A DNA stretch of 39,918 nucleotides, taken from UHGV virus genome UHGV-0076060; one strand, written 5' to 3'. Positions within the stretch are counted from its first letter, which is position 1, and each line of letters opens with the position of its first letter. Source of the DNA: a virus. The notes beneath the pieces were generated by a model. The model worked only from the letters and a program-made list of their open reading frames with translations. It was not told the origin of the DNA and did not search any database. The position numbers and the translations under genes were made by a program. Shown here in pieces: positions 2,479 to 39,225 of this stretch.

Positions 2479-3104
2479 ACCGCCAGCACCTTACTGGCAG
2501 TGATGTATCGCGCGCGCCGGTCATCAATGCCGTTCCGGCCACCATTGATAAGCAGAGTTACACGTGCAATATCTCCGGTATACTTCATGCAGCCTTTGCT
2601 GGAGAAGAACCAGGCCGCGCTACGAGCCGCGTATTCGTCCTGTGCCAGCAGTTCAGGATTCTCCAGCAGGTCAACTTTCAGACCGTTTCCGCAGTCACGA
2701 TAGTTATTCAAACCGGTAATCTGGATAAGCCCGCGCCCACGGTAATTCCAGCCATCGCCGGGAGCATTGTTACCCATGCGTTTGCTGTATACCAGATTTG
2801 CGATCGCGCGCTGGCGCTCAAGTGGCAATGGTGGTTCACCAGCGCGGCGCCCCAGTGCATTAGCCTGTCCCTGGGTGAGGCGTCCAGTCCGGACAAAGCT
2901 TGCCAGTCCGGTAACGCTGTAGTTGAAATTCTCCTGCAACCTAGTGAACCCCCCAGACTCATGCCCAACTTGAGCAATAAACATTGCCTGATCTTCTGCT
3001 TTGCTGATACCAAACTCTTTCATCGCAGAAGTTATATGCGAGAACCAGCGAGCGGCCAGCGCCTCGCTAATACCAGCAGCTCGCTGGAATTGTTTAATCT
3101 CCAT
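2475..3104 (-). CDS. endolysin, glycoside hydrolase family 19-like (chitinase class I-like lysozyme)
   Basis: 209 aa with motifs [12 protein letters not shown] and [12 protein letters not shown] typical of GH19-type phage endolysins; sits between holins and Rz. Confidence 0.8.
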
Positions 3105-3402: not shown

Positions 3403-3805
3403 CGTCTTTTCTCCCCGGAATTAACTCGCGTGGATTATCGGAACGGTGATAGAGCCAGATGCCAATTCGTACTGCGACGATTGCTGACACAAATGCGCCA
3501 GCAGAGAAAACAATCCCTTTCTCGAAAGAGTCCTGCGTGATGGTAGGTATCAGGCTGGCTATGCCGATAAGAATTGATGCTGCTGGTTTGTAGAAAAGAA
3601 GTCCGCAGAGAAAACTAAGCATCGACAAGAGTACGCGACGACGAATTGGGTACTCTACCGCAGAGGTAACAAAAATTACCGCGCCAGCCAAAGCTCCCAA
3701 AGCAACCTCAGGAGGCACTCCTGCTATCACCGCCGCCAGAGAACTCATGCTAAGCCACTGATTTAATGTTTCACTGGTTAGTTGAGCTGACATATTTTCC
3801 ACCAT
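3389..3805 (-). CDS. holin-like multi-TM protein (138 aa)
   Basis: Several hydrophobic helices, charged C-terminus, first gene of lysis cassette; start may be the internal Met (MSAQLT). Confidence 0.55.
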   Translation of the reverse strand: MVENMSAQLTSETLNQWLSMSSLAAVIAGVPPEVALGALAGAVIFVTSAVEYPIRRRVLLSMLSFLCGLLFYKPAASILIGIASLIPTITQDSFEKGIVFSAGAFVSAIVAVRIGIWLYHRSDNPRELIPGRKDDGNA

Positions 3806-4014
3806 TTATATGCATAACGACCCCCTAAATAGTAAAGCATCATGCATGATAAACCATTTATGGTTTTTTGTTACCCTGGCATCGTAAATCCCCTGCCTTT
3901 GATGTCGATAATAAGGCTCGCCTTTTACATAACTCTGAAGAGATTGCAGTACAGAAATTATTTAAAATATAGAGGCTTAGTTGAATTCCGCGCCATCAAA
4001 TGGCGCGGTAGCAG

Positions 4015-4333: not shown

Positions 4334-6649
4334 TCATAAAATAGATTTCGTCTTTGTAACAATAATATCTACAAAATCACCTGCAGATATAGCTGATGGT
4401 ACTGTATCTGCAAGAGTAATCTTTTCTGAAGAGATGTTTTGCACATCTAATAATTTATTTTCAACCCCATCCGTATATACCAATTTGACATCACTGAATG
4501 GAGGGTAATAAGTGACTGTTCCTTGGTATACATATATTTCACTGCCTGAAATTGATTTCACTACATACCTGCCCCTTACAAGATTAATTTTGAGTTCAGA
4601 TAAATCGGTTTTATAACAGGTAATTCCTGAACCAATGTTAGCCATACTAATATCAGTATCACTATAATAAGTAATTGCTTTTCCTTGTTTTAAGGTGAAG
4701 TTATCTTTGCTTTTCCTTGGCAAGGATGTGCTATTTTTGTAATATCTACCAGTTAAGCATAGCCATGAAAATGCAGTATTCGCTACATTACCACCAGAAT
4801 ACACAGCTAAACGAATTGCACTAACTGGAACCCCTTCATTATTAATCCTGATCTTAATGGAAGAAATGTTAGCAACAGTAGCATATCTATGGTTAGATGA
4901 ATCCCATTGCATAGAAGAAGTTATTGCTTCTGTTTGTGAAGTTATGACATTCCCATCTCCATCTAATGCATACAGGTAAATGCGAAACGATGCCGTATCT
5001 GCTGAGAATGTAAACATATCACCATTTCTTACTGGTACATCTCCAGATTCCCATAACAACCCAAAATTCCGCATAAAAGCAAACTTAGAAGAAACTAGGT
5101 GACGGATATTATATAAACCATCTACATCTGTTTGATATGCTAATACACCAACTTCTCCATTGTTGGCACTGGATATAAATGGGGTGTTAGCATTTAAAGA
5201 AAACAATGTTACTTCATCGGATATATTTTCCTGAACATGAAATACTGCATTCCCCTTGCCATTATCAGTTACCTCTACATAAGTGTAAGGTGATGGATTG
5301 TATGGTTCATTTGTATAGTAAGGAGAACTTAACCATGAAGCCTCAATTGAGTTATTCCACGTATATTCACCAAAGTTAATTATCAACTGTTGGTTAGTTG
5401 GGGATGATGGATATCGTTCAAAACGAAACCCGTAGAAGTAATTGTTATCACCTCTTTGAATATCAATTTTACCTGCCCCCTCCATAGTTCCACCATAAAA
5501 CTTATTGTGGTTATGATGATATGGATTATCAGCGAAAATGATATTATTCGTACGATTCAGATAAAAATAGTTTTCATTTATCCATCCGTTCTCAACTCCA
5601 AGAAAATGAATTGTATCGACCTTTTTCAGGTTAAAGGTTGAGTATGCTATTGAATAATCCGTCGATGCCACCGAAGCATTATAATTTGCATATAACTGTA
5701 AGTAGTCGCAACGCTCAATGTTTATATGCTGCCCTTTTGCCCCGATAATACGAATATCCGGTGTCGTTTCAGATGAAATACCAGAATTTCTGATAATCGT
5801 TCCGAAGTTTTGTCTTGGGTTGTTAGGGTTTGATGCATTCCCGCCAAGCAATACCCCTATTCCTGAGTGGGATATGGTAAAAACAGCATTGGTCATTTCG
5901 AGGCTGACATTACGAAGATTTAATGTCTCCGTAATAATAAAATTACCTTCCGCTCGTAATGTTCTGGATGATTCTCGTGCATATTCTGCAGCCAGGATCA
6001 ATGCAGATGTATCATCTGTTATACCATCGCCTTTTGCCCCAAAATCGCGAACACTAACGGTGTCTCTCATCTTATCCTGGAACGTTCGGTATACTGCTCC
6101 AGAACCATACTGAATAAACCAACCAAAACCACCAACAACCCCGGCGATTGCAGCATCGACATAATTACGCATTGAGCGATTATTTACAGCGTCCTGCTCA
6201 AGTGATGGATCTGCAAGGTTAGAAATTTTGTTTTGCTTTGCATCGTAATATTTTGCAAGCAAAGATGGTTTCATCAATGCACGTCTGAACCACCCAAAAC
6301 ATTGCTGGATCAGCATCGTCAGGTAGTCAAAAGCATCTTCATGCACTTCGGGGAAAAATTTTCCCTGATTGCGAAGATCTGTCTCCTGCACTACATCAAG
6401 CACACGATCTATCGTAATTCGCCAGCCAGCAGCAAGCGGAGACGGCAGAACCACTGAACCGCCACTATAAGTGCCCGCCCCAGTTACCGTATAACCGGTA
6501 TCCAGAACCAATTCTGTTACGTTCCCGTTCAGGTCAGACACCTGAACAACCAGGTCTGATTTTCTGAAAATTCGAAAAGTATACGGAAACGATGTCGTAA
6601 CGCCGTTACCTGTGTATTCGTTGTGGTCAACTTCGGTTGAGACCGTCAT
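4334..6649 (-). CDS. tailspike/tail fiber with T7-type N-terminal adaptor domain and beta-helix depolymerase-like body (771 aa)
   Basis: N-terminus (YTGNGVTTSFPYTF...DLVVQV) matches the phage T7 tail-fiber N-terminal pattern; DFGAKGDGITDDT resembles pectate-lyase/beta-helix motifs; C-terminal coding part (4334-5700) is markedly AT-rich. Confidence 0.8.
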   Translation of the reverse strand: MTVSTEVDHNEYTGNGVTTSFPYTFRIFRKSDLVVQVSDLNGNVTELVLDTGYTVTGAGTYSGGSVVLPSPLAAGWRITIDRVLDVVQETDLRNQGKFFPEVHEDAFDYLTMLIQQCFGWFRRALMKPSLLAKYYDAKQNKISNLADPSLEQDAVNNRSMRNYVDAAIAGVVGGFGWFIQYGSGAVYRTFQDKMRDTVSVRDFGAKGDGITDDTSALILAAEYARESSRTLRAEGNFIITETLNLRNVSLEMTNAVFTISHSGIGVLLGGNASNPNNPRQNFGTIIRNSGISSETTPDIRIIGAKGQHINIERCDYLQLYANYNASVASTDYSIAYSTFNLKKVDTIHFLGVENGWINENYFYLNRTNNIIFADNPYHHNHNKFYGGTMEGAGKIDIQRGDNNYFYGFRFERYPSSPTNQQLIINFGEYTWNNSIEASWLSSPYYTNEPYNPSPYTYVEVTDNGKGNAVFHVQENISDEVTLFSLNANTPFISSANNGEVGVLAYQTDVDGLYNIRHLVSSKFAFMRNFGLLWESGDVPVRNGDMFTFSADTASFRIYLYALDGDGNVITSQTEAITSSMQWDSSNHRYATVANISSIKIRINNEGVPVSAIRLAVYSGGNVANTAFSWLCLTGRYYKNSTSLPRKSKDNFTLKQGKAITYYSDTDISMANIGSGITCYKTDLSELKINLVRGRYVVKSISGSEIYVYQGTVTYYPPFSDVKLVYTDGVENKLLDVQNISSEKITLADTVPSAISAGDFVDIIVTKTKSIL

Positions 6650-6753
6650 GTTAAATCTCCAGATAGTCGCAGCACCCGTTGCGCCGCATATCTGGTTATT
6701 CTATTACCCAAAAAACCATATATGGATAGAAAGGCTGTGAATATGAATAGATA

Positions 6754-6768
6754 TTACCTTTCAGGTAA
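6754..6768. promoter_or_regulatory. ATTACC-N5-GGTAA operator-like palindrome (copy 1)
   Basis: TTACCtttcaGGTAA; 16 bp identical to the copy at 26545; about 105 bp upstream of the tailspike start. Confidence 0.5.
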
Positions 6769-6805: not shown

Positions 6806-6825
6806 TACTGTATAAATATACAGTT
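6806..6825 (+). promoter_or_regulatory. LexA (SOS) box overlapping promoter of downstream small gene
   Basis: TACTGTATAAATATACAGTT fits the CTGT-N8-ACAG consensus with AT-rich spacer; overlaps a TATAAAT -10-like element 20-40 bp upstream of the ORF. Confidence 0.7.
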
Positions 6826-6845
6826 ATTGCATGGAGAAGATTAAG

Positions 6846-7103
6846 ATGCAGCAGTATCACTATCCACTGGAAGACGGATTTACCGAAAGGATTCACACGC
6901 CGGGAGGCGTCAGGTCACTGGTGGAGGGATCGCACTTGATGAAATTACTCCGGGATCTCGATAAGGATGGATTTAATGTCGATGGCCCACTTGCTGAACT
7001 GACTGCACTGATTAACTACGTCACCAGCTCACAGATGTCTATGCGGGATCTGCAAACACATCTCGACTATTGTGCCGAACAATTACGAAAACAAACCACA
7101 TAA
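6846..7103 (+). CDS. small SOS-controlled protein (85 aa), putative antirepressor
   Basis: RBS GGAGAAG before ATG at 6846; about 44% identity over ~45 aa to the C-terminal domain of the Bro-N protein at 8252..8947; preceded by LexA box. Confidence 0.6.
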   Translation: MQQYHYPLEDGFTERIHTPGGVRSLVEGSHLMKLLRDLDKDGFNVDGPLAELTALINYVTSSQMSMRDLQTHLDYCAEQLRKQTT

Positions 7104-7126
7104 AAAAAAAGGCCGCAAGAGCGGCC
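7102..7126. terminator. bidirectional terminator between convergent genes
   Basis: Hairpin GGCCGC-aaga-GCGGCC with A9 tract on one side and T-rich run on the other. Confidence 0.65.
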
Positions 7127-7854
7127 TATCGTTTCGCTTTGTGCTCGTCCCAGCACGTTTTGCACCATGCCATTAAGCCGTCCGCATTTTGATTATTAGA
7201 GTAAAAGCTGGTGCGTTTTCTGCGGACATTACAAATTGGGCACCACTTCATATGGCGTGTATTCTTTGGGCCATCGAGACACCTTGCACACCACTTAGTC
7301 AATCCATCTGGATTTTTTGACGATTTCCTGAATTTTTCATATGGAAGGTTTATTCTGCATCGCAAACACTGCTTACTACCACTTGAAACTCTGTTAGCTG
7401 ATTCTTCTTGTGATGGCGATACAGAAGGTATTCTTGCTGGCTCAGATACTACCTGAGGAGCTTTTTTAGGTAACTGAGACGATATGTCATCACCTGGGAA
7501 TCTGTCATGATATGCCGGACGCGTTGACACTCCAGGTGGAAGCTCTGCTGTAAATGGCTTTGGCTGAATCAGCGCCCTCTCTTTTGCTGACTCCTGTTGT
7601 TTATAATATGTCTGGATTACCGATATATCATAAGCAGGATGTACTGAAATATCCGGCGCATTACCTCCAGTTTTTTGAAACTGAGTGGAGGTGTGGTCTA
7701 TCACCTGTGTACGATTAATCGTTATTTCTCCATCTTCGGTCTTTATCGTTTTGCGATGATTAACGACTGTGCGATCAGAGACCTTAGTCCTGTTCTGGTT
7801 GATAACGTAAATAATCACCGTAACAACACCAACAACTATCCAGAAAACTTCCAT
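7126..7854 (-). CDS. membrane-anchored protein with tandem C-terminal CxxC...CxxC zinc-ribbon repeats (242 aa)
   Basis: N-terminal TM helix (VFWIVVGVVTVIIYVI), Pro/Ser-rich linker, two repeats of C-x2-C-x(17-19)-DGL-x3-WC-x2-C. Confidence 0.6.
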   Translation of the reverse strand: MEVFWIVVGVVTVIIYVINQNRTKVSDRTVVNHRKTIKTEDGEITINRTQVIDHTSTQFQKTGGNAPDISVHPAYDISVIQTYYKQQESAKERALIQPKPFTAELPPGVSTRPAYHDRFPGDDISSQLPKKAPQVVSEPARIPSVSPSQEESANRVSSGSKQCLRCRINLPYEKFRKSSKNPDGLTKWCARCLDGPKNTRHMKWCPICNVRRKRTSFYSNNQNADGLMAWCKTCWDEHKAKR

Positions 7855-7874: not shown

Positions 7875-7889
7875 TTACCTTAAAGGTAA
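7875..7889. promoter_or_regulatory. ATTACC-N5-GGTAAT operator-like palindrome (copy 2)
   Basis: TTACCttaaaGGTAA about 20 bp upstream of the 7854 start codon. Confidence 0.5.
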
Positions 7890-7967: not shown

Positions 7968-7982
7968 TTACCTTTTCGGTAA
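7968..7982. promoter_or_regulatory. ATTACC-N5-GGTAA operator-like palindrome (copy 3)
   Basis: TTACCttttcGGTAA, adjacent to a TTTACA -35-like hexamer. Confidence 0.45.
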
Positions 7983-8019
7983 ATTTACATCGCACTCATC
8001 TTGTGCCATAGTAATCGGG

Positions 8020-8096
8020 CACTGGCAAAATCCAGTGCCGGGATTGGCGTCCCGGATTACTAAAAGGCGCATTCACCGCGCAAGCGGTTTTTTTAT
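8020..8096 (+). ncRNA. candidate small RNA (about 75 nt) ending in an intrinsic terminator
   Basis: No plausible ORF; possible promoter (TTTACA...TAGTAAT) upstream; two internal hairpins (GGCACTGG/CCAGTGCC and CCGGGA/TCCCGG) and terminal hairpin ACCGC-gcaa-GCGGT plus T7 tract at 8075-8096. Confidence 0.3.
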
Positions 8097-8251
8097 GCGT
8101 ATAGCACGGCCACATTCGTATTATGGTGGGCTGTGTGGGGGCACCGAAAGGTGCGCCGGGTCCTTTTAGCCGGTTACGCCAACCCTGCACAGTTCACCAC
8201 CAACCGATTGGCGTCGGTAGTGGTGATTGACCAGACTAAAAGGTAACCACT

Positions 8252-8947
8252 ATGACAGCTACAAAAAGCACGTCCATTTTTTCTTTCGAATCCCAAGCCG
8301 ATATACGAGTAATCGTCATTAATGGTGAGCCATGGTTTATCGCTTCAGATGTTTGTCGGGCTATAGGCATAGCAAACCATCGAGATGCTGTTCGAAAACT
8401 TGATGATGATGAGAAGGGCGTCGCTTCAACCGACACCCCTGGCGGTGAGCAAGAATCGATCATCATCTCCGAGTCAGGCCTCTACACACTGATCCTCCGC
8501 TGCCGCGACGCAGTGACACCAGGCACTATCCCCTACCGCTTTCGTAAATGGGTTACAGGTGAGGTTCTTCCTCAGATCCGCCGCACCGGAAGTTACATTA
8601 AAAACTCGCTCCCGCAGGAAGAACGCATAAAGATGGTTGCCGACCAGGTTGCAAACGCCACAGCATCAGCAGTGATGCAGGCGATGAAGATAGAGAACAA
8701 AACCTACAGTGCCCCACTGAAGCCCGGCTACCGTAGCCTGATTCATTCGCCGTCTGGTGTTCTCGGCCTGACGGAGAACTCACTGCTGATGAATCTGCTG
8801 AACCAGTTACAGGAAGACGGGCACGATGTATCGGGAGCGGCGGCGGAGCTGACCACCATGTTCTGCTACATCGTCGGTGTGAGCAAATGCCTGCGTGATA
8901 TCCAGACCCACGCGGAGTACATCAACGACAAGGCAGGGTTCTTCTGA
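8252..8947 (+). CDS. Bro-N domain protein, antirepressor-like (231 aa)
   Basis: N-terminal Bro-N/KilA-N-like sequence (FESQADIRVIVINGEPWFIASDVCRAIG...FRKWVTGEVLPQIRRTG); C-terminal domain homologous to the 85-aa protein at 6846..7103. Confidence 0.75.
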   Translation: MTATKSTSIFSFESQADIRVIVINGEPWFIASDVCRAIGIANHRDAVRKLDDDEKGVASTDTPGGEQESIIISESGLYTLILRCRDAVTPGTIPYRFRKWVTGEVLPQIRRTGSYIKNSLPQEERIKMVADQVANATASAVMQAMKIENKTYSAPLKPGYRSLIHSPSGVLGLTENSLLMNLLNQLQEDGHDVSGAAAELTTMFCYIVGVSKCLRDIQTHAEYINDKAGFF

Positions 8948-9116
8948 CGGGCGGCGGCACAGGGATGTGCCTTTAAATAATTCTGTACAGATTGCAGGTG
9001 AATAGCTTACTATTACCTCACGGGTGATCCATAGCGATTAGGCACCGATACAGGAGGAGCCCACATGAGAAAATTTGACGAGTACGAAGGCGTTTAACAT
9101 TCGGATAGTTTAATGA

Positions 9117-9974: not shown

Positions 9975-9986
9975 GTGACATGTCAC
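9975..9986. repeat. 12-bp perfect palindrome GTGACATGTCAC (copy 1 of 3)
   Basis: Exact 12-mer also at 27581..27592 and 29846..29857; overlaps stop codon of the minus-strand gene. Confidence 0.7.
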
Positions 9987-18280: not shown

Positions 18281-20748
18281 AATCCCCCAACAGTAAGGCG
18301 AGGAATAACGGCAAGAACAGACAGCGGCAACGGGTCAAGCTGACGGATTCTTACACGTCCGTTTTTGCCCCAGTTACTGTCCAGTTTCACTTCTACTTTT
18401 CCGGTAGCGTCATCAACAGGATCATCGTAGAACTCGAATTCACGCTGTGGATATTCGTACCATTTACCGCCTGGCGTAGTCGCCCAGATGCCGCGGCTGG
18501 CATTCACAACCAGAGTAACGGACGGGATCACCTGTTTTTTGTCCAGCAGCGTTTCCTGTCCGTTAATGTTGATATCCAGTGTTTCGAATTCAGCAGTTAT
18601 TGGCAGGCCGATGTGCACTACAGCCCCCGGTGATTCCAGCGTGACGGCACCTCCGGAAACCACTTTCTGTGGTTCCACGTTCGCATCAGAGAGAATGTTT
18701 ACGGTCTGGCCTTCAAGATGAGACAGGCCTCCAAATGTCCGGCGCGCCATCTGCCAGTTCATGGTGGCCGCATTCCTGAGGGATGGCGGGACGTTCCTGT
18801 TGGCACGAACCACTACAGCGGTATTGCTGGTTACAGAAATAATGTCGCAACGTAATTCTTTTGACACTTCATCGCCAGTATCAGGATCAGTTCCGGCATA
18901 AGGGAACTGTAGTTGCGCGCCGACATCACTACTGGTGAAGTACGCACCACCAGAAACACTGATTGTATATTCCGCGCGATAATCCCATTCGCCAGAACCA
19001 CCAGTGATGGTCATCGTTCTGTCAGACGTATTTCTTCCATCATAGCTAAGGCCAGAATCAACAAAGAAAGCATCTTCATCGCTGGTAAATAAACGGCTGG
19101 ACAGTCTCTCGATGTATCTCACTGTTTGCCCGTTAACGGTTCTGTTAACGACGAAATACACCGCATCTTCATTGCCTTCGCTGATACTGCATGTGCTTTC
19201 ATATTTTCCGGTACTGGATTGTGGTGCCCATGCAAAAACCTGCTGATCACGCAAGTAGGTCATCACCAGTAATTTACCATCATCACGAATGCAGAAGGCG
19301 CTGGAGTAAGGGACAATCGAGAAGCACCAGTCAACAATGCTGTGCTTCTGAAAAAGATGATTGGCAAGGATAGTAAGGTCGTTCCCCTGATATCCGTCAA
19401 CATCGAATGAGTAGGCCAGATCACGTACAACACTGCCTTTCTCCTGGACGAACAGAGCAATATTCGCCACGGCAATTGGTGGGACATTGCTCGAGCCATT
19501 TGATCCCTGAGAGCTGAATGCAAATGATGATGGGGTTAACACTTTGTTCTGGTCGCCGGTGATGACGTACTCACCTCCAGAAGTCAGTGCCACCAGCGAA
19601 CCGACATCAATCAGGTGGCGGATCTCATTAACCTGACGCCCGGCATAGGTGTAGATAATTCTGTCGTCATCCTGCGTAGGATTGCTTTTGCCAAAATCCT
19701 TATAATCCCCGGTACGGCTGGCCCAGATAGTCTGAGGGAACGCAGTCGATGCGGCGAAGTAAAGACGTTGTTGATAATAAACAACAGTGCCAGGATAACC
19801 ATTAACACTGTTCCAGGCATATTTAGCCCATTTATAGCTGGCATTATCCTCGCCAACTACCTGCGAAGGGATATAGGAAATCACCTCGGCAGTTGCAGTA
19901 GTTCCATTTGCAGCAGTGATACGGGCAATGCCAAAACCACTGTGCAGATATTCCCACTCAATGCCAGTATCATCATCACCGGATCCGCCCCAACCATCCC
20001 ATGATGTGCCTTCTGTATGCGAAGGGCGCAAAGTACCTGTTTTGCCTGCTGTAACGGCGCGATAGTAGTTACTGTCTGCACGGCGAATATCGCCAATCGA
20101 CGTACTCTTACTGGTTTCCCATACCGGCACTGAATCCACTGCAGGCTGTTCCAGATAGAACAATTTGCCTACCTGCTCCGCGCCAAAAATAGAGGCGCTT
20201 GCCGTTAACGTAATTGTCCCGGTGCTGGCGCTGGCATAAACCGTCACTGACTCGTCAATATTGATATCTTCAAATGGCCCGTTCTTCGTTACCACATCAA
20301 CCAGTTGCCAGTTGTCATGCGCATAGCGGCGCAACTCTTTCGGCGGGTATGCCGGGTGAACCAGCGTAAGCACGTCGGCGCTTTGCGTGAATTTAATTCG
20401 GAACAGATCGGCTTCAGTATATGGCGTGGCAATTTCATAAATAACATTGCTGCTGTTCAGCACCAACGCACCATCTTTGATAACGCGCATGTACTGGTGT
20501 CCGAACTCCAGAGCATAGGTCTGAACCGTCGAGAACTGGAACGGGATCAGGCGGCATTTCCGATTTGGGTATTTGGCGGCACCGACAAAACGCGTACCAG
20601 GTCGATTCTCAACGCCGCCATACTGCCGCACGATAAAGTTATCGCACTTGCGCAATGCCACCTGGTACTTCGCCATGTCGATACGCCCGTATAATGACGG
20701 GCCAATTTCACCACCAGCGAAGCTGGGTTGTATCCAACTGATAGCCAT
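18277..20748 (-). CDS. tail tube/nozzle protein, T7 gp12-like (823 aa)
   Basis: Size and position directly after the gp11-like gene; beta-rich composition; overlapping coupling with neighbours. Confidence 0.55.
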   Translation of the reverse strand: MAISWIQPSFAGGEIGPSLYGRIDMAKYQVALRKCDNFIVRQYGGVENRPGTRFVGAAKYPNRKCRLIPFQFSTVQTYALEFGHQYMRVIKDGALVLNSSNVIYEIATPYTEADLFRIKFTQSADVLTLVHPAYPPKELRRYAHDNWQLVDVVTKNGPFEDINIDESVTVYASASTGTITLTASASIFGAEQVGKLFYLEQPAVDSVPVWETSKSTSIGDIRRADSNYYRAVTAGKTGTLRPSHTEGTSWDGWGGSGDDDTGIEWEYLHSGFGIARITAANGTTATAEVISYIPSQVVGEDNASYKWAKYAWNSVNGYPGTVVYYQQRLYFAASTAFPQTIWASRTGDYKDFGKSNPTQDDDRIIYTYAGRQVNEIRHLIDVGSLVALTSGGEYVITGDQNKVLTPSSFAFSSQGSNGSSNVPPIAVANIALFVQEKGSVVRDLAYSFDVDGYQGNDLTILANHLFQKHSIVDWCFSIVPYSSAFCIRDDGKLLVMTYLRDQQVFAWAPQSSTGKYESTCSISEGNEDAVYFVVNRTVNGQTVRYIERLSSRLFTSDEDAFFVDSGLSYDGRNTSDRTMTITGGSGEWDYRAEYTISVSGGAYFTSSDVGAQLQFPYAGTDPDTGDEVSKELRCDIISVTSNTAVVVRANRNVPPSLRNAATMNWQMARRTFGGLSHLEGQTVNILSDANVEPQKVVSGGAVTLESPGAVVHIGLPITAEFETLDININGQETLLDKKQVIPSVTLVVNASRGIWATTPGGKWYEYPQREFEFYDDPVDDATGKVEVKLDSNWGKNGRVRIRQLDPLPLSVLAVIPRLTVGGF

Positions 20749-26247: not shown

Positions 26248-26454
26248 TTACTGACCAAGCAGCGTTTTACCGCTGGTATTAGCGGTTGATGTGTCACCCT
26301 GAGAACCGGTAAGCAGCGTAGAACTACGACCAGCAGCAGCGCGACGGCGACGAGTTTCTTCGTCGCGGGCATCAACAACGGCGGCATCCTGCTCCTGTGG
26401 TGCTGCCTGAACTTCTGGTGTTGCAGGCACTGACGGTGAGCTACCCATGCACAT
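26248..26454 (-). CDS. small hypothetical protein (68 aa) upstream of portal
   Basis: RBS GGAG 9 nt before ATG; chosen over the overlapping 26235..26474 frame, which has an Arg/His/Cys/Leu-rich out-of-frame-like composition. Confidence 0.35.
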   Translation of the reverse strand: MCMGSSPSVPATPEVQAAPQEQDAAVVDARDEETRRRRAAAGRSSTLLTGSQGDTSTANTSGKTLLGQ

Positions 26455-26544
26455 ATCAATGACTCCGTACGCAATTAAATTATTACCAATTTAACCACAT
26501 ATGATTTATTTATCGTAGGCAGTTGACATTTAACGCATGAATTA

Positions 26545-26559
26545 TTACCTTTCAGGTAA
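26545..26559. promoter_or_regulatory. ATTACC-N5-GGTAA operator-like palindrome (copy 4), upstream of head genes
   Basis: TTACCtttcaGGTAA, identical 16-mer to copy 1; about 90 bp upstream of the 26454 start; TTGACA hexamer nearby. Confidence 0.5.
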
Positions 26560-26881: not shown

Positions 26882-26958
26882 GTGGCATTAGCTCAGTTGG
26901 ACAGAGCAACCGCCTTCTAAGCGGTTGGTCGCAGGTTCGAATCCTGCATGCCACGCCA
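26882..26958 (+). tRNA. tRNA-Arg (anticodon UCU, reads AGA)
   Basis: Manual cloverleaf: 7-bp acceptor GTGGCAT/ATGCCAC, D-stem GCTC/GAGC, anticodon stem ACCGC/GCGGT with loop CTTCTAA, T-arm GCAGG-TTCGAAT-CCTGC, discriminator G, encoded CCA. Confidence 0.85.
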
Positions 26959-27001
26959 GAATCACGCCTAAGGACCGTGATGCCAGAAGTTCCAGGTGCT
27001 T

Positions 27002-27044
27002 GGCGGTGATGGTTTCCCTTGAAGGACTATCACCGCCCTTTTTA
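27002..27044 (+). terminator. intrinsic terminator downstream of tRNA-Arg
   Basis: GGCGGTGAT...ATCACCGCC hairpin followed by CTTTTTA. Confidence 0.6.
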
Positions 27045-27121
27045 CAGCAGGACGCCATTGCGATGACTTCATGCTGTAAACCAGTACAGCCACGGAAGGC
27101 ATAACTCATTGCTTCCAGTTC

Positions 27122-27146
27122 GCCCGGTTCGCCGGGCATTTTTTTA
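27122..27146 (+). terminator. hairpin plus T-tract immediately upstream of moron RBS
   Basis: GCCCGG-ttcg-CCGGGC then ATTTTTTTA, followed by RBS AAGGTGAG. Confidence 0.5.
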
Positions 27147-27580: not shown

Positions 27581-27592
27581 GTGACATGTCAC
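27581..27592. repeat. 12-bp perfect palindrome GTGACATGTCAC (copy 2 of 3)
   Basis: Exact copy; 5 nt after the moron stop codon. Confidence 0.7.
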
Positions 27593-29142: not shown

Positions 29143-29813
29143 TGATTACCATCCTGACGTTCTTTGAGTCGCTTCCTGGCTGCTGCTATGCGATCAGCAA
29201 TTGTCACATTCACATTAACATCCAGACGTTCTTTGAACGCGTTGACATCAACATGCTTACCAATCAGCTCAAGGTTCTTCACCTTGTCAGGCCATTTAAT
29301 TTTTTTGAGGATTGTCTCTATCGAATCCTCGTTCATGTTCATGATGGTCGATGACAGATCAAAGCCACTAAGCGTAGTGCGCCAGATTTTCGGCCACTCA
29401 CGGATTGGTTTAAGGCTCCCATCGTCGTTGAGGATGTCGATCACGTCCATCTGGTCGATCTCCACCAGGCGCATGAGAACGTAATCAGCACTGACGCGCA
29501 TTCGTTTGTTGCGCTCCTCCATCAACTCGGCAATCCGTTTTTGAATGCGTTCATCGCGCATCATGACGCTGGCTTTAACTGCCGCTGTATTTGGGGAGAA
29601 TCCTGCGTTAATCGCTGCCTGAGTCTGGTTTTCAGGCGTTTTGATGTATGACTGGCAATAAGCCTCCTGCATTGCTGTTAGTGGCTTAAATTGCGTTGAT
29701 TTGCGTTTATAGGTTTTAGGTTCAGCAGGCATCATAACCACCGTGGTAATAGTTACCGTTGTGGTAATAGTACCATGCAAAATAAAGCCGCCATAGTTGG
29801 CGGCAGTATCCAA
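29139..29813 (-). CDS. terminase small subunit (about 200-224 aa)
   Basis: Position upstream of large terminase, basic N-terminal region; the ORF's first in-frame codon is TTG, true start possibly the internal MMPAEP. Confidence 0.6.
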   Translation of the reverse strand: MDTAANYGGFILHGTITTTVTITTVVMMPAEPKTYKRKSTQFKPLTAMQEAYCQSYIKTPENQTQAAINAGFSPNTAAVKASVMMRDERIQKRIAELMEERNKRMRVSADYVLMRLVEIDQMDVIDILNDDGSLKPIREWPKIWRTTLSGFDLSSTIMNMNEDSIETILKKIKWPDKVKNLELIGKHVDVNAFKERLDVNVNVTIADRIAAARKRLKERQDGNQ

Positions 29814-29845: not shown

Positions 29846-29857
29846 GTGACATGTCAC
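29846..29857. repeat. 12-bp perfect palindrome GTGACATGTCAC (copy 3 of 3)
   Basis: Exact copy overlapping the stop codon of 29854..30195, just upstream of the terminase genes. Confidence 0.7.
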
Positions 29858-30195
29858 ACTATTAATTTCGTTTCATGCCAGCCTTTAGTCACCCAGCATT
29901 GCGAGTCACCATTACACGGGCATGAATTAACGGGAACTCTCTCGCCGCACTTACCGCAAAGTTTTCTGCTGATCGATTTTATACGCCCGCGCACACGTGC
30001 ATCATCCTGGCGGATCAGCAGCGCTATATACTCACCAAATTCGTAAGGCGCACGCCCGGGGCGACGCGTGGCACAGTTACGCTCCAGCATTTCAATTTCC
30101 TGAGCATCAAGCACAATCTCCAGCTTACGCACACCAGATGCAGCTTGTCTGGCTCTCTGAGCGGCTTTGCGCTCTGCTGCTGATTTAGCCATCAA
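29854..30195 (-). CDS. hypothetical protein with Cys-rich C-terminus (113 aa), candidate regulator
   Basis: Basic/Ala-rich N-terminus, C-terminal CGKCGERVPVNSCPCNGDSQC cluster; immediately upstream of the terminase operon. Confidence 0.5.
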   Translation of the reverse strand: MMAKSAAERKAAQRARQAASGVRKLEIVLDAQEIEMLERNCATRRPGRAPYEFGEYIALLIRQDDARVRGRIKSISRKLCGKCGERVPVNSCPCNGDSQCWVTKGWHETKLIV

Positions 30196-32801: not shown

Positions 32802-33146
32802 TCAGAACTCTTCGATTTTCCATCCGCCACCTGCTTTCTTTGGCTTAACAGTTACCCCGATGATTCGGAACGGATATTGATCTGCGGCGACTTTGGTTTT
32901 CACCCAGGCGTCGTCGGTCCAGAAACCTTTCACTTCGTGCAGTTCCATCTCTCCGGTGGCGAGCATCACAGCGAAATCTGGCGTATAGAACGTGTTATCA
33001 GCTAACCGCAGCTTGATACCCTCGAATCGATACCAGGCGATTTCCCCTGCACGTTTACGCAGCTCAAGGTGCTGGCAATACGCAGATTCTGTTTTGTTCA
33101 TCTGGCCTGTTTTGAGTCGACCAAGAGCCTGTATCTGTTTTCTCAT
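32802..33146 (-). CDS. VRR-NUC-like PD-(D/E)XK nuclease (114 aa)
   Basis: Motif PDFAVML...ELHEVKG fits the PD...(D/E)XK pattern of small VRR-NUC nucleases. Confidence 0.5.
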   Translation of the reverse strand: MRKQIQALGRLKTGQMNKTESAYCQHLELRKRAGEIAWYRFEGIKLRLADNTFYTPDFAVMLATGEMELHEVKGFWTDDAWVKTKVAADQYPFRIIGVTVKPKKAGGGWKIEEF

Positions 33147-33149
33147 GAT

Positions 33150-33164
33150 TTACCCCTAAGGTAA
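33150..33164. promoter_or_regulatory. TTACC-N5-GGTAA operator-like palindrome (copy 5)
   Basis: TTACCcctaaGGTAA abutting the 33146 start codon. Confidence 0.45.
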
Positions 33165-33211
33165 TTAAAAACCACATAAGACACGAAATCAATAGAGTTT
33201 AGAATATTTTA

Positions 33212-33226
33212 TTACCCGACAGGTAA
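33212..33226. promoter_or_regulatory. ATTACC-N5-GGTAAT operator-like palindrome (copy 6)
   Basis: TTACCcgacaGGTAA, 62 bp from copy 5. Confidence 0.5.
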
Positions 33227-33263
33227 TTATCAAGACGTAAAAAAATGCGCTATCGCGCTGGTA

Positions 33264-34040
33264 TTACTTGATAAATCCTGCCGCCTTTCCCCGCCTGTAT
33301 TCCTCCATCAGCCACTGCGCCGGTGTTATTCCCCCCAGGGTAGCGGCGTTAGGCATACACCCGAAACTTCGCCCTGGTGGATGGTAAACGTCTCTCCCTG
33401 TGTCCGGAGGCGTACTCATGGGTTCTGGCTTTGCCTGTATGCTGATCACCGGATCGGGTATCTGCTGTCCGGAAGCCACCTTTTTCGCCCAATCATCAAG
33501 CAGCCTGCGCGCATGTTTCTCAACCTCAATCTCGCTAAGCTGGCGCTGATACATTGCACGGCGGGTATCACATACGACCCAGTACATAACCGGATGCCGC
33601 CACGGGAATCTTTCGGGACCACCAGGATATAAACTTTTTTCCTTGCTGTACCGGTGAAACTCCGCCATCACATCGTCAATGGTGACGCCAAGAACCATCT
33701 TGCTGTCTTTACACCACTTGATAAATTGCCCTGGCGACGGCCAGAACGGAGATTCACTGGCGCGGGCGTGGCGCATACCAGCGTTAACCTGTTCCATTGT
33801 AGTGATCCCATTCTCCAGAAACGCAAGCATCCATTGCTTACGGAATTCATTAAGTTTGTTCTGCTCCCTTATGGTCGAAACGCTTGCAGGAAATGCAGCC
33901 TGTAACTGGACAAATAGTTCATTGAAAATTCTAGCGACCTGCTCCTTTTTGCCATTGCTGTCACGCCGCTCTTCATGCACAGCAACACCATGCTCACGTA
34001 AGCGATCGTACTCATTGAGAAGTTCTGGAGTTGATTTCAT
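33264..34040 (-). CDS. replication protein P-like DnaB helicase loader (258 aa)
   Basis: Recalled lambda P signature [15 protein letters not shown]...PSPGQF is present nearly verbatim. Confidence 0.75.
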
Positions 34041-34842
34041 CCCACACCCCTTCTATCCAGTCAGTGTTATTCCAGTCAAGCTCATCGCTTTTCCCGGCGT
34101 TTTTTGATTTTCCCCTGATATGATTTACGTGCCTGGCGAATTTTTGTTCCCACTGAACCTGCGTGAACACTTTGCCCTCAGCCATCCAGTAATCCCGGAA
34201 TGCAGCAAGTTCAGCAGGTGTAAATTCCGGTTCCGGCAGGGCCGTTCCCCACAGCGCAGCACGCCGTCGAAAATCCGGCGATGGATGCCAGCCATCGGTC
34301 ATCGGAAATTTCCCAATAGGTTCACTCAGGCCATCCAGAAATGCAGGTTCTGCCACCTGCAACGGCGTACCGTTCGCTTCACTGGTCGGATCACTCTCGC
34401 GCGCGTGTGCTATGTGTGGGGTTTTATATATATCTTCCTCTTCCTCTTCCTCTGGTAACTCCTTTTGTAACGCTGTTGGCGTTACTTTTTGCGTTACTCG
34501 TTTTCGATGCTCTGCCACTCTTCTATTCGTAAGTGCACGTTTTTTCGATGATTCTCCATTATGTCGCTCAAAGTTTGGAAGAATTAGTTTGCCGTCATGA
34601 TAAGCAAGCCATCCGACGCTAATGAGGGCGTCAGCAAATCCTGTAATAAAAGCGAGTCTATCAAGTACTCCTTTTGTAACGCTGCCAGCGTTACCGTCTA
34701 TTGTTTGCTGGTCAGCCCATGCCCATATACGAACCAGCTTTCCAAGAACAGCATCTGGATCAATACCCAGAATTTCTGCTATCTGAAAAATTTCAGGTTT
34801 ATCAGGAGTGATAACTTCAACCTTAATCCAGCTGCTTGCCAT
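34012..34842 (-). CDS. replication initiation/replisome organizer protein with DnaT-like C-terminal domain (about 276 aa)
   Basis: Start at MASSWIKV with GAGGGG RBS; C-terminus ([32 protein letters not shown]) resembles the DnaT C-terminal region; acidic linker. Confidence 0.6.
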
Positions 34843-35017
34843 AGGTTTCCCCTCTTGCACTCTTTAGTGCACAAGCAAATTCATTACGATGGCGGTTGGC
34901 GCTATTCATTGCACATTCAACACATGTTCCGTTCAGAACATACCTTTCAGAGAGATGGCCGTGACGGCACCGCTTTCCTGTGAAATAGCGATTTAACCCG
35001 GCTTTTGCGGCCTCCAT
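34823..35017 (-). CDS. small zinc-finger-like protein (64 aa) in cII-equivalent position
   Basis: ATG start (MEAAKAGL...), motif CRHGH...CVEC; between Cro-like gene and replication genes; weak RBS. Confidence 0.4.
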
Positions 35018-35114
35018 TCTGGTTACTATCTTCAATTTTTCCGCCCCCTTTTTGTTATTGATATTGGCTATTTTGCACAATTGGAAAATTTGATCAACCA
35101 GATTTGGTTTTTTA

Positions 35115-35129
35115 TTACCTTTGAGGTAC
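35115..35129. promoter_or_regulatory. imperfect operator-like site (TTACC-N5-GGTAC)
   Basis: ATTACCtttgaGGTAC, one mismatch to the palindrome. Confidence 0.35.
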
Positions 35130-35136
35130 GAATAGA

Positions 35137-35162
35137 TATGAAAAGACCGCCGGATGGCGGTC
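35137..35162 (-). terminator. intrinsic terminator after the Cro-like gene (tR1-like)
   Basis: GACCGCC-ggat-GGCGGTC followed on the minus strand by TTTTCAT. Confidence 0.6.
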
Positions 35163-35184
35163 TACAGAGGGTTGTGGCTGGATA

Positions 35185-35415
35185 TCATGAGTAGAAGAAG
35201 TATGCCAGTTCTGCTTTTGAGCGCAGCCATTGTCTTGTTTTACAGGCTTTAAAAAGCCCATTCATCAATACCTTACCTGGCATTTTGCGCTTACCTGTTA
35301 AGTGAGTCTGGATATAGTGACTCGTCGTTCCGGCTTCCTGTGCGAAGGCTTCACGCTCATCCGGAGTAAGTGCAAGCCAGTGCTTTTTGAAATCGAAATG
35401 TCCGTTATCGCTCAT
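35185..35415 (-). CDS. Cro/YdaS-like HTH regulator (76 aa)
   Basis: Small HTH protein (ALTPDEREAFAQEAGTTSHYIQTHLTGKR), first gene of the replication operon, divergent from the cI-like gene. Confidence 0.6.
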   Translation of the reverse strand: MSDNGHFDFKKHWLALTPDEREAFAQEAGTTSHYIQTHLTGKRKMPGKVLMNGLFKACKTRQWLRSKAELAYFFYS

Positions 35416-35461
35416 AGCTATTGCCTGATATTTATTTCAGATAATAAATATTCACCCATAA

Positions 35462-35514
35462 GGTAACAAAAATCAAGGATAGTTACCTATGGGGTGCATT
35501 TACCTGTTGGGTAA
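35462..35514. promoter_or_regulatory. immunity-region operators (OR-like) between divergent Cro-like and cI-like genes
   Basis: GGTAAC-N14-GTTACC at 35462-35487 and TTACCtgttgGGTAA at 35500-35514; candidate -35 TTGTTA / -10 TATTAT for the Cro-like gene overlaps them. Confidence 0.55.
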
Positions 35515-35569
35515 TATTGCTTTAAATTGAATCATCTACTGATTCATATACGAGGCGATTTTCCAGAAA

Positions 35570-36154
35570 ATGAAAAGTATCCAGGACGTCCGCAGGCAAA
35601 ATCTCAACGACTTGATCGACCGTGAATTCAATGGTGTTCAGACGCGGATGGCAGAAAAACTTGGAACTCAGGCAAATCTGGTAAACCGCTGGGCTCTTGG
35701 CAAGAAGGTTATCGGCGACCAGGTTGCGCGAAAAATTGAAGCTGCCGCCAATAAACCCCGTAACTGGCTTGATATCGATCGCTCGCTTTCTCAGGAAGGT
35801 TTTCAGCCTGTCGGCCCAAGCGACATTGGTCAGCTGGCGGCTCACAACCTGGAACGCTGGATGAGCGAAAGCCGCGACCTTTCAACACAGGGAAAACTTC
35901 ACCGCGCATCCGGCGTCGCCCAGGTGACAATCAGCCGCCTGTTAAACAATGAGGTCAGCGTTTCCATTTCCACCCTGGAGAATGTTGCATCCGCATTCGG
36001 GCGTCACGGCTATGAATTACTGATTCACCCGCACGACCCTGCGACCATCAACTATGACCGCTCGCGCTACGCATTGTTACCCGAAACCGAGAAAGCAAAG
36101 ATCGAAAGTTACATTGAATTTGTCATCAACCAGAACGAAAAAAACAAACAATAA
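35570..36154 (+). CDS. cI-like repressor candidate with two HTH motifs and no recognisable autocleavage domain (194 aa)
   Basis: HTH-like segments (QTRMAEKLGTQANLVNRW; LHRASGVAQVTISRLL); monocistronic with own terminator; no Ala-Gly / Ser-Lys S24-type motifs seen by eye. Confidence 0.55.
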   Translation: MKSIQDVRRQNLNDLIDREFNGVQTRMAEKLGTQANLVNRWALGKKVIGDQVARKIEAAANKPRNWLDIDRSLSQEGFQPVGPSDIGQLAAHNLERWMSESRDLSTQGKLHRASGVAQVTISRLLNNEVSVSISTLENVASAFGRHGYELLIHPHDPATINYDRSRYALLPETEKAKIESYIEFVINQNEKNKQ

Positions 36155-36175
36155 AATCATATTTTTCAGTAAGTA

Positions 36176-36199
36176 AGCCGCCTTCTGGCGGCTTTTTTA
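36176..36199 (+). terminator. strong intrinsic terminator after the cI-like gene
   Basis: AGCCGCC-ttct-GGCGGCT followed by TTTTTTATT. Confidence 0.75.
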
Positions 36200-36210
36200 T
36201 TGTCTACACA

Positions 36211-36227
36211 ATTACCTTAAGGGTAAT
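36211..36227. promoter_or_regulatory. ATTACC-N5-GGTAAT operator-like palindrome (OL-like, distal)
   Basis: ATTACCttaagGGTAAT. Confidence 0.5.
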
Positions 36228-36272
36228 TTTTTTAACTCATATCTATTGACACCAAACCAAATACGCATAATT

Positions 36273-36289
36273 ATTACCTCAACGGTAAC
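36273..36289. promoter_or_regulatory. ATTACC-N5-GGTAA operator-like palindrome (OL-like, proximal), overlapping promoter
   Basis: ATTACCtcaacGGTAAC; TTGACA at 36246-36251 with -10-like ATAATT about 17 bp downstream; 62 bp from the distal copy. Confidence 0.5.
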
Positions 36290-36307
36290 AGACCGAGGTA
36301 ACAAGTT

Positions 36308-36460
36308 ATGCAGTGGAAAATCATCAACGGTTGGTACTGCGTTACTGCATGCGGATTCATGAGCTGGAAGTTCCGCACCTTACAGGAAGGCATTAAGTGG
36401 GCTTTCGTCAGCAAAGAAGCTCGCGATGTGGCCAACGATAACGAGATATGGGAGGGCTGA
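36308..36460 (+). CDS. small hypothetical protein (50 aa), first gene of the leftward-type operon
   Basis: ATG with GAGG RBS; absent from the ORF track because under 60 aa. Confidence 0.35.
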   Translation: MQWKIINGWYCVTACGFMSWKFRTLQEGIKWAFVSKEARDVANDNEIWEG

Positions 36461-36462
36461 TA

Positions 36463-36762
36463 ATGAACGTTAATCAGCAGAAAAATCTTCAAAAAATCAT
36501 GCTGGCATTCGACAAGGACTACCGCCTGTCAGAACAGCTATATGACCGACAAGTTGAACTGATCGAGAGCATCCGGCTTCATCAACTGGCCTCAACTTTT
36601 GACGCTGTAACAGGCAAAGGAGTTCGCCAGGAAGTGCTGGAGGCAGCTAAAGACAGCCCTGAGTTCGAAGAACTTATGGATGCCTACCGGCGCGAGGCAA
36701 TAGCAATTATCGCCCGCTGGGATCTGGCGGATCGGATTGATGGGCAGAGGGAAGCGGCATGA
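36463..36762 (+). CDS. hypothetical early protein (99 aa)
   Basis: ATG with GGGAGG RBS; overlaps next gene start. Confidence 0.5.
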   Translation: MNVNQQKNLQKIMLAFDKDYRLSEQLYDRQVELIESIRLHQLASTFDAVTGKGVRQEVLEAAKDSPEFEELMDAYRREAIAIIARWDLADRIDGQREAA

Positions 36763-37580
36763 AACCGGGAATTTATTTCGACATCAGCAACGAAGACTAC
36801 CACGCCGGTGACGGCGTGAGTAAGTCGCAACTGGACATGGTTGCCAAGAATCCGGCGCTTCTTAAATGGGTTCAGGCAGCACCAGAAGACGAAGAGAAAA
36901 AGTCTGCACTGGATATGGGAACCGCATTGCACTGTCTGCTTCTGGAACCTGGAGAATTCGACAAACGCTTCATCGTTTCACCGAAATTCGATCGTCGGAC
37001 AAAACAAGGTAAAGCTGACGAAGAAGCATTTCTTCGTGATGTGGCGGATATGGGTATTACGGTACTTGATGTCGAGCAGTGGCGAAAACTGGAGCTGATG
37101 CGTGATAGCACAATGGCTCACCCGGCTGCACGCTGGATGTTGGAAGCACCTGGTTACTGCGAAGCGTCAATGTACTGGAACGATGAAGAGACGGGTGAGT
37201 TGTGCCGAATTCGTCCAGACAAATGGCTGAACGAGCACAACGTGATCGTCGACGTGAAAAAGGTTGCAGATATGGACCGTTTTGCACGCCACATCGAGGA
37301 ATTCCGCTACCACGTGCAGGACGCAATGTACCGCGAAGGCGCAATGAGGGTTACTGGTCAGCCGCATGGTTTTTTCTTTCTTGCCGTGAGCGAAAGCATT
37401 GATTGTGGTCGGTATCCGGTACGCGTGTTCGAGCTGGATGCGCAGGATGTCGATGCCGGGCACGCTCTGTTCCGCCGGGATCTGAATACCTATCACGAAT
37501 GCCGCATCAATGATGAATGGGGCGGTGTGGAAATCATTAAACGCCCTGAGTGGGCACGCAAACAGGATATGTACATATGA
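36759..37580 (+). CDS. PD-(D/E)XK family exonuclease (RecE/YqaJ-like partner of RecT) (273 aa)
   Basis: Motifs IRPDKW and IVDVKK fit a PD-(D/E)XK core; translationally coupled (ATGA overlap) to the RecT-like gene. Confidence 0.6.
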   Translation: MKPGIYFDISNEDYHAGDGVSKSQLDMVAKNPALLKWVQAAPEDEEKKSALDMGTALHCLLLEPGEFDKRFIVSPKFDRRTKQGKADEEAFLRDVADMGITVLDVEQWRKLELMRDSTMAHPAARWMLEAPGYCEASMYWNDEETGELCRIRPDKWLNEHNVIVDVKKVADMDRFARHIEEFRYHVQDAMYREGAMRVTGQPHGFFFLAVSESIDCGRYPVRVFELDAQDVDAGHALFRRDLNTYHECRINDEWGGVEIIKRPEWARKQDMYI

Positions 37581-38925: not shown

Positions 38926-39225
38926 GTGAGAAAGTTAAGCCGACTTGAAAAATATCACATGAACAAGGTTTCAATGCGCAGCCCTTCAAAGGTTGTTGCC
39001 GTTACTCCTGCGGCGATAGAGATCGAAAAACGCGCGATTGAAAGAGAGAAAAAAGGGCAGTTCCGCATTGCCGCCCACCTTTGGCTTCAGTGTATGGATG
39101 TTGCTTCTGGTGATGTTGAGCGTGCAAGGATCGCGGTTCGCAGGGACCAATGTATCACAAAAGGTAACGGCCTTCGCCGTGGCGACTATAGCGGCATAGG
39201 ATGTTGTGGGGTGGTTTATGACTAA
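38926..39225 (+). CDS. hypothetical protein (99 aa)
   Basis: GTG start with GAGG upstream; alternative ATG at 38959. Confidence 0.4.
   Translation: MRKLSRLEKYHMNKVSMRSPSKVVAVTPAAIEIEKRAIEREKKGQFRIAAHLWLQCMDVASGDVERARIAVRRDQCITKGNGLRRGDYSGIGCCGVVYD

Follow-up and report, generated by a model that had tools for sequence, protein, structure and literature searches.

A recurrent intergenic palindrome as the probable operator of the Rep repressor in an epsilon15-like prophage of Escherichia coli

Which protein reads a palindrome that flanks the divergent repressor and Cro-position genes of a phage immunity switch and also recurs at intergenic sites over the rest of the genome? The question was raised by a 39,918-nucleotide stretch of viral DNA (UHGV virus genome UHGV-0076060; “the window” below means this whole stretch), in which a first-pass annotation of positions 35462-36289 had noticed copies of ATTACC-N5-GGTAA at the switch, in front of head, tailspike and accessory genes, and in a “nin-like” region. 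Comparison with related phages made it highly likely that ATTACC-N5-GGTAAT is the operator of Rep, the master repressor of this prophage, and that induction would proceed via the antirepressor Ant. The palindrome is real, very probably a functional operator, and an already known feature: the public epsilon15 record contains the motif, shows it spread over the genome and assigns it to the repressor, and Rep, Ant and LexA have been structurally studied in phage SPC32H. Four aspects may be undescribed: the strict +1/-62 geometry of operator pairs, the post-terminator operators before terS, the operators of a Bro-N module, and a second palindrome, GTGACATGTCAC.

Counts and conservation of the palindrome

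The operator palindrome, as described by a position matrix, was 17 bp long (ATTACC-N5-GGTAAT) with a central base pair that was nearly always A/T. Ten perfect TTACC-N5-GGTAA cores were present in the window (at 6754, 7875, 7968, 26545, 29753, 33150, 33212, 35500, 36212 and 36274), and gave 14 two-strand 16-mer matches, whereas 100 dinucleotide shuffles gave none; the earlier description of the motif as pervasive was borne out by this count (10 perfect copies vs. 0 expected). Four more copies carried one mismatch (9013, 35115, 35452 and 29735) and one, TTACCTATGGGGTGC at 35484, carried two. All copies listed by the first-pass annotation were found, but the list had overlooked the perfect copy at 29753 and its partner at 29735, both before terS, and the “inverted arrangement” reported at 35462-35487 was not a separate element, being made up of the right half of operator 35452-35466 and the left half of operator 35484-35498.

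The position matrix, trained on epsilon15, SPC32H, Tyrion and BUCT711 only and used with a threshold of at least 8 bits, gave 14 matches in the window vs. 0.47 expected in Markov shuffles. Non-coding DNA made up 9.3% of the window, yet held 14 of the 14 matches (binomial P about 4e-15). The one-mismatch copies located inside genes (2900 and 3655) scored below the threshold and are probably due to chance. Phage lambda contained no perfect copy and a single one-mismatch copy, which is the chance level; neither coding DNA nor this unrelated genome was found to carry the motif as often as the intergenic regions of the window.

Positions 33000-37000 were 97-98% identical to the Escherichia phages vB_EcoP_ZX5 (ZX5), HEMP4, TL-2011b and phiV10 (Uetakevirus, epsilon15-like podophages). 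The motif was found at the same places in epsilon15, phiV10, SPC32H, Tyrion (Enterobacter) and BUCT711 (Klebsiella), and motif and positions were kept in six phages from four host genera, with Rep identities to the window protein as low as 42-45%. The syntenic sites (switch, early-left, nin, terS, head and ant/tailspike) were all present, the copy upstream of int falling outside the window. The switch of six enterobacterial prophage loci retained the motif, and in five of these loci the nin pair was retained as well. Five regions were aligned (early-left, switch, nin, ant/tailspike and head), with invariant half-sites and variable spacers and flanks, a pattern to be expected of a sequence recognised by a protein and not of an RNA helix.

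The repressor was named as the binding protein in the epsilon15 RefSeq record (NC_004775/AY150271), which contains seven “protein_bind: repressor / lysogeny” features, each reading as an ATTACC-N5-GGTAAT palindrome. Some of these features precede terS (homologous to window site 29753), the first head gene (26545) and a RuvC-like gene (33212); others are found in the gap that separates gp19 from the tail-fibre gene (6754) and past the repressor gene (36212/36274). The records of phiV10 and ZX5 carried no operator annotation, and text searches of the literature for the motif or for the epsilon15 operators gave nothing usable.

Rep, its operators and the predicted promoters

The rep gene (35570..36154, + strand) encodes a lysogeny repressor of 194 amino acids, in which an N-terminal helix-turn-helix (HTH) domain for DNA binding precedes a middle domain for dimerisation and a C-terminal one for tetramerisation and Ant binding. 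The protein was 100% identical to the repressors of phiV10 and ZX5, and matched SPC32H Rep (PDB 5D50) over residues 1-190, i.e. over its full length (E 4e-42). The recognition helix, NLVNRW, was invariant in five aligned Rep proteins (window, Tyrion, BUCT711, epsilon15 and SPC32H); F184 of the window protein was also invariant in the alignment and was matched by eye to Phe187 of SPC32H Rep, a residue of the tetramer interface. Pfam searches gave HTH families only, with no S24 autocleavage domain; the protein belongs to the Rep/Ant antirepression type, and the “cI-like” label of the first-pass annotation does not suit it. The proposal that repressor operators flank the divergent repressor and Cro-like genes and overlap promoter elements was, for its part, backed by the homology to SPC32H and epsilon15, by the epsilon15 annotation and by the phylogenetic footprints.

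SPC32H Rep has been described as a tetramer on palindromic sites, in which the paired DNA-binding domains come from different dimers and which is disassembled by Ant (PMC9638917). From the N- to the C-terminus, its domains serve DNA binding, dimerisation and tetramerisation, the last of them having a p53-like “TetDloop” looping fold; about 100 Å separate its two pairs of middle domains, and the way in which it represses has “not been extensively characterized” (PMC9986798). Overexpression of the ZX5 repressor abolished free phage and lowered endolysin and holin transcripts by about 99.9% (PMC9782041). By homology, the HTH domain of the window Rep would read the TTACC half-sites and the protein would act as a tetramer. 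In the lysogen, Rep would occupy about 15 sites and cover every transcription unit, with single or paired sites before terS, before the head and replication genes, before ant/tailspike and before the Bro-N accessory module.

The motif was absent where distant homologues of the N-terminal domain have another helix (Hydrogenovibrio, Thiomicrospira and Paraburkholderia), and no recurrent palindrome of the kinds searched was found with them. A cI protein with a Rep-like N-terminal domain was observed in Pseudomonas phage PseuP_224, where TTACC-N4-GGTAA occurs three times around the gene (2922-2975 and 3794-3838). The order after this cI gene was terminator, operator, promoter, operator, and an unannotated divergent open reading frame (ORF) of 76 amino acids was seen at 2661..2891.

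The promoter architecture around the operators was predicted from conserved consensus elements. Downstream of rep, the order of elements was the rep intrinsic terminator (36175..36200, + strand; also annotated in phiV10), operator OL2 (36212..36226; about 12 nt past the terminator), 19 bp, TTGACA (36246), 17 bp, AATTAT (36269) and operator OL1 (36274..36288). The predicted early-left promoter (36246..36274, + strand; consensus match 10/12) would drive the gp37/gp36-like genes, recE, recT, xis and a perC-like gene. ZX5 and phiV10 are likewise annotated with a recE/recT/xis operon past rep and with the replication genes on the Cro side. OL1 overlapped the end of the -10 element and was centred on the predicted start site, OL2 had its centre at about -62, and CTATTGAC of this promoter region was invariant in six genomes.

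The “nin-like” promoter, which would serve the DUF1064/Eae-like operon, followed the same plan on the minus strand: the terminator of the replication operon, immediately followed by an upstream operator (33212..33226; about -62), the predicted promoter TTGATT-17-TTTAAT (33164..33192; TTGATT at 33192-33187, 17 bp, TTTAAT at 33169-33164; TATTGA invariant in six genomes) and a downstream operator (33150..33164; about +1), whose spacer holds the Shine-Dalgarno sequence of gene 32802..33146. A promoter lying over operator 33212, suggested by a promoter scan, was discarded, as the six-genome alignment favoured the conserved TTGATT-17-TTTAAT between both operators.

Operator centres were predicted to fall at about +1 and -62 at both promoters. 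The two pairs spaced 62 bp apart, noticed previously, were exact for 33150/33212 and for 36212/36274, and the spacing was held within 1 bp in more than 20 pairs from the phages and prophages examined. As 62 bp corresponds to about six helical turns, both sites would therefore lie on the same face of the helix, and one Rep tetramer, with its two DNA-binding units, could clamp the +1 and -62 operators if the DNA were to bend sharply.

Three aligned operators, conserved in six genomes and spaced 32 and 16 bp apart, were found at the switch. Oa (TCACCcataaGGTAA, 35452..35466) fell within the spacer/-10 of the predicted leftward promoter of the Cro-position gene (TTGATT-17-GAATAT), and its half-sites and the adjoining AAAAATCAA were invariant in six genomes. 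Ob (TTACCtatggGGTGC, 35484..35498) was degenerate in the phiV10 type and aligned with perfect operators of epsilon15, SPC32H and BUCT711, whereas Oc (TTACCtgttgGGTAA, 35500..35514) covered the -35/spacer of the predicted rep promoter (TTTACC-17-TTAAAT). In this arrangement Oa would act in the Cro promoter; relative to the predicted rep start, Ob would be at about -43 and Oc at about -27.

Most of the 14-15 sites were at predicted +1, -18 or -62 positions, and four operators were located about 12-13 nt past an intrinsic terminator. Among the remaining sites, a one-mismatch operator (TTACC...GGTAC, 35115..35129) was found about 13 nt past the terminator of the Cro-position gene (35144-35163), upstream of the replication genes and, by prediction, at about -62, with syntenic one-mismatch copies in phiV10, Tyrion and BUCT711. 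The operator before terS (29753..29767) was directly downstream of the late terminator (29787-29806) and is an annotated repressor site in epsilon15 (12-27); a second, one-mismatch operator (29735..29749), 18 bp away, abutted the terS start codon (29732). The head-gene operator (26545..26559; epsilon15 site 2931-2947) preceded the first head gene (26248..26454) by about 90 bp. The ant/tailspike operator (6754..6768; epsilon15 site 19895-19911) was located in the gap that separates ant from the tailspike gene (4334..6649, - strand), and its position relative to the predicted ant promoter was about -62.

Ant, a small antirepressor (6846..7103, + strand), was 87% identical to SPC32H Ant; its ORF opens at 6831, the likely start at 6846 being taken from the position of the Shine-Dalgarno sequence and from the ZX5 annotation. 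A perfect LexA box (TACTGTATAAATATACAGT, 6806..6824), conserved in six genomes, overlapped the predicted ant promoter. From this arrangement the prophage appears to be SOS-inducible via Ant and not via repressor cleavage: inactivation of LexA would derepress Ant, which would take the Rep tetramer apart.

Three operators were found in an accessory module downstream of ant. One (7875..7889) was 21 bp upstream of the start of gene 7126..7854 (- strand); another (7968..7982) overlapped promoter-like sites upstream of isrK-like and C4-like RNAs and of the Bro-N gene 8252..8947; and a one-mismatch operator (9013..9027; 10.9 bits) was downstream of the Bro-N gene. The accessory gene 7126..7854 is inserted relative to ZX5 (segment 7104-7961) and encodes a phrog_6762 protein with a C-terminal zinc-ribbon/endonuclease VII-like region. 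Rfam matches above the gathering score were obtained for the isrK Hfq-binding small RNA and the C4 antisense RNA (8019-8094 and 8119-8204, + strand), immediately upstream of the Bro-N “anti-repressor” gene and behind Rep operator 7968. By these matches the isrK/C4/Bro-N block looks like a P1 immI-like second antirepressor module. Two breakpoints of similarity between the window and ZX5 (7962 and 8989) were 13-31 bp from operators 7968 and 9013, and most other mosaic breakpoints vs. ZX5 were far from any operator; these positions hint that operators may mark junctions where accessory modules are swapped (two breakpoints fit, many do not).

The lysis-cassette operator, a further member of the set in relatives, was perfect in epsilon15, carried one mismatch in phiV10, SPC32H and Tyrion, and was degraded beyond recognition in the window (3806-3960). 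The O-antigen acetylase gene that relatives have at this region was missing from this prophage.

Several points weigh against Rep as the reader of all these sites and against the proposed looping. Binding of the palindrome by Rep was derived from the epsilon15 annotation and from a secondary description of palindromic sites; the predicted promoter positions come from consensus elements rather than from mapped start sites; and the Cro-position protein surpasses Rep in conservation, so that covariation within the genus cannot separate the two candidate binders. The tetramer could bridge a 62-bp pair, but such a loop is very tight, and the -62 sites lacking a core-promoter partner (ant and the replication genes) give no obvious mechanism of repression. 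Taking the sites together, we tentatively propose that the whole prophage may be silenced by +1/-62 micro-loops at two promoters, a roadblock before terS and, possibly, operators at module junctions, a scheme that is considerably less certain than the identification of the palindrome as the Rep operator.

Other explanations of the sites

One of these explanations is compatible with Rep as the binder. A subset of the sites (29753/29735 and 7875) might serve as roadblocks to elongating polymerase, a possible though doubtful role. The late terminator, both operators and the start codon of terS are too close together for a promoter to fit between them, and the order of a GTGACA promoter-like element, terminator, two operators and terS was kept in five genomes; the positions just past intrinsic terminators noted above point the same way. 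However, operators adjoining terminators may belong to the next promoter, as they do at the early-left and nin-like promoters, and true stoperators, in contrast to these sites, are neither symmetric nor few. The terS pair is the one place where a roadblock role seems reasonable and, if this is true, these post-terminator operators near the ribosome-binding region would be a stoperator-like device in a Gram-negative podophage.

It is unlikely that the principal binder is instead the Cro-position protein, acting in lytic growth like lambda Cro at OR, with the sites forming the regulon of a lytic repressor. This protein of 76 amino acids (35185..35415, - strand), a homologue of epsilon15 gp39, is HTH-like and matched phrog_35 “transcriptional repressor” (E 5.6e-13), with no match in Pfam or PDB. 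It was 58-84% identical across the genus, had an invariant HTH-like segment (AGTTSHYIQ.HLT) and was as conserved as the motif; moreover, it is well established that Cro and CI use common operators in lambdoid switches. On the other hand, the epsilon15 annotation names the repressor as the binder, and the 62-bp pairs of operators accord well with the tetramer described for Rep, which has two DNA-binding units. TTACC half-sites also accompany the Rep-like N-terminal domain in PseuP_224, whose Cro-position protein had no detectable similarity to that of the window, a comparison which may be taken as a weak hint in favour of Rep. Sharing of some switch operators between Rep and the Cro-position protein is quite possible.

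A structural or non-regulatory origin of the copies, as RNA hairpins or terminators, as targets of restriction-modification or methylase enzymes, or as boundary sequences of mosaic modules, was judged highly improbable. The phage does encode an MT-A70-family DNA methyltransferase, and operators 7968 and 9013 are close to the two breakpoints already mentioned, but a modification target would not shun coding sequence, and the other breakpoints are mostly distant from the sites. As RNA, the hairpins would be weak (-3.5 to -6 kcal/mol) and without T-runs, genuine GC-rich terminators adjoin them, and the half-sites were invariant, not covarying; the hairpin reading was ruled out by the weak stem energy and the absence of compensatory changes.

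The least credible alternative was the late-activator regulon suggested in the first-pass annotation, with the palindrome as the target of, e.g., a Cys-rich regulator of 113 amino acids (29854..30195) or a PerC-like protein (38926..39225): copies do precede terS, the head genes and the tailspike gene, and the phage encodes conserved candidate activators, but the geometry is that of a repressor, with the strongest copies on either side of the repressor gene and over the predicted -10/+1 of early promoters, the distance of the palindrome to the late genes is not constant, and the late regions share other conserved elements (CATATRTGGTT and GTGACATGTCAC).

The Cys-rich C-terminus of the 113-amino-acid regulator (29854-30195, - strand) was invariant (CGKCG...C.C...C), and the whole protein showed 71-79% identity across the genus. 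No other gene lies between its gene and the late promoter-like element and terminator, and the protein is a candidate for a late activator or an antiterminator. CATATRTGGTT (core CCATATATGG) was found in the sense strand at 3852-3865, 6714-6727, 26493-26503 and 33170-33180 (- strand), upstream of the lysis, tailspike, head and DUF1064 genes, within strongly conserved blocks (7 matches vs. 1.26 expected). Judged from its placement, this element may be a late-promoter or activator element. The second palindrome, GTGACATGTCAC, had three perfect copies (9975-9986, 27581-27592 and 29846-29857) vs. 0.13 expected, with syntenic copies in epsilon15, phiV10, SPC32H, Tyrion and BUCT711 and none in lambda. 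It was located at the ends of late transcription units beside terminator hairpins, held the TGA stop of the preceding gene at two sites, and has no annotation in the epsilon15 record. The terminase and head genes had a tRNA-Arg gene between them (anticodon TCT; 26882-26958, + strand), which was antisense to the late genes and overlapped a mechanically called ORF (26888..27139); a tRNA-Arg is likewise annotated in the corresponding interval of SPC32H.

Prophage setting and comparison with known systems

The window holds a Uetakevirus prophage of the phiV10/ZX5 type, integrated in E. coli. Its first 1.8 kb (1-1790) corresponded to the host genes yfgG/yfgH/yfgI, encoding YfgG (DUF2633), YfgH (a glycine-zipper lipoprotein) and YfgI (DUF5384), a stretch found in all complete E. 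coli genomes. A 17-bp attachment (att) core has been given for ZX5, phiV10 and epsilon15 (PMC9782041), and this core, ATTGAGTGGGAATGATT, was present at 1877-1893 of the window. Host genes at 1-1790 together with an att core at 1877-1893 mean that the sequence is therefore an integrated prophage. The window spans one attachment site to just before the integrase gene, the integrase end being beyond position 39918; a complete phage genome devoid of an integrase was ruled out by the same host genes and att core, and by the location of the int end outside the window.

This prophage type is common in E. coli (its immunity region was present in 541 of 5426 complete genomes) and its relatives include serotype-converting Salmonella phages and O157 phages. 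With the operator set known, immunity groups become predictable, and the single operator specificity across the examined Uetakeviruses, despite their diverged repressors, suggests cross-immunity. The operator set may also be useful for prophage-induction studies, and Rep with its operator as a genetic part. The lasting value of the analysis is a testable hypothesis on the conserved 62-bp pair geometry and the post-terminator operators.

Among known systems, epsilon15, whose genome was reportedly described by Kropinski et al. in 2007 (Virology 369:234), shares with the window an identical palindrome, syntenic positions and a homologous repressor (gp38). The epsilon15 repressor is only 42% identical to the window Rep, and seven sites are annotated vs. 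11 perfect copies in its genome. With respect to epsilon15, the sites of the accessory module (7875, 7968 and 9013) are extra in the window, and the one that precedes the lysis genes has been lost. The Rep-Ant-LexA antirepression switch of SPC32H is said to have been worked out by Kim & Ryu (2013, J Virol) and by Kim et al. (2016, PNAS), with structures PDB 5D50 and 5D4Z. The window likewise has a full-length Rep homologue, a close homologue of Ant and an ant promoter with a LexA box, its operator set recurs in the SPC32H genome, and it goes beyond SPC32H in having a Bro-N “anti-repressor” behind isrK-like and C4-like RNAs.

Lambda CI/Cro is similar in that three operators separate a repressor gene from a divergent Cro gene, in a second cluster at the early-left promoter and in probable cooperative or looped binding; the location of Ob, about 43 bp upstream of the predicted rep start, is reminiscent of lambda OR2. 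The differences from lambda are a Rep that lacks the S24 autocleavage domain and would be inactivated by an antirepressor, pairs 62 bp apart around one promoter instead of adjacent triplets, different switch spacings (32 and 16 bp), and added sites before genes of late, replication and accessory functions. As pointed out previously, the sites extend past a plain OL/OR arrangement, and this spread was real and genus-wide, though neither of the comparisons then drawn, with stoperators and with a late-activator regulon, fits.

The stoperators of Cluster A mycobacteriophages (L5 gp71) are asymmetric 13-14-mers, present at two to three dozen per genome and oriented with transcription, which act on elongation. 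Multiple asymmetric operators are on record for this system (PMC1934351). The window resembles it in having one repressor and many sites over the whole prophage, some downstream of promoters, but its sites are symmetric, number about 15 and are mostly at fixed core-promoter or -62 positions, and only the terS pair, and perhaps 7875, are roadblock-like. The looping repressors of the pLS20 Rco/TetDloop type are likewise tetramers, with an N-terminal DNA-binding and a C-terminal tetramerisation domain, and have been proposed to bridge separated sites; they differ in showing no sequence similarity outside the DNA-binding domain, and the loop proposed for the window would be fixed at 62 bp. In the KorA/KorB global regulons of RP4, as would be the case for Rep in this prophage, one regulator governs many operons of a mobile element.

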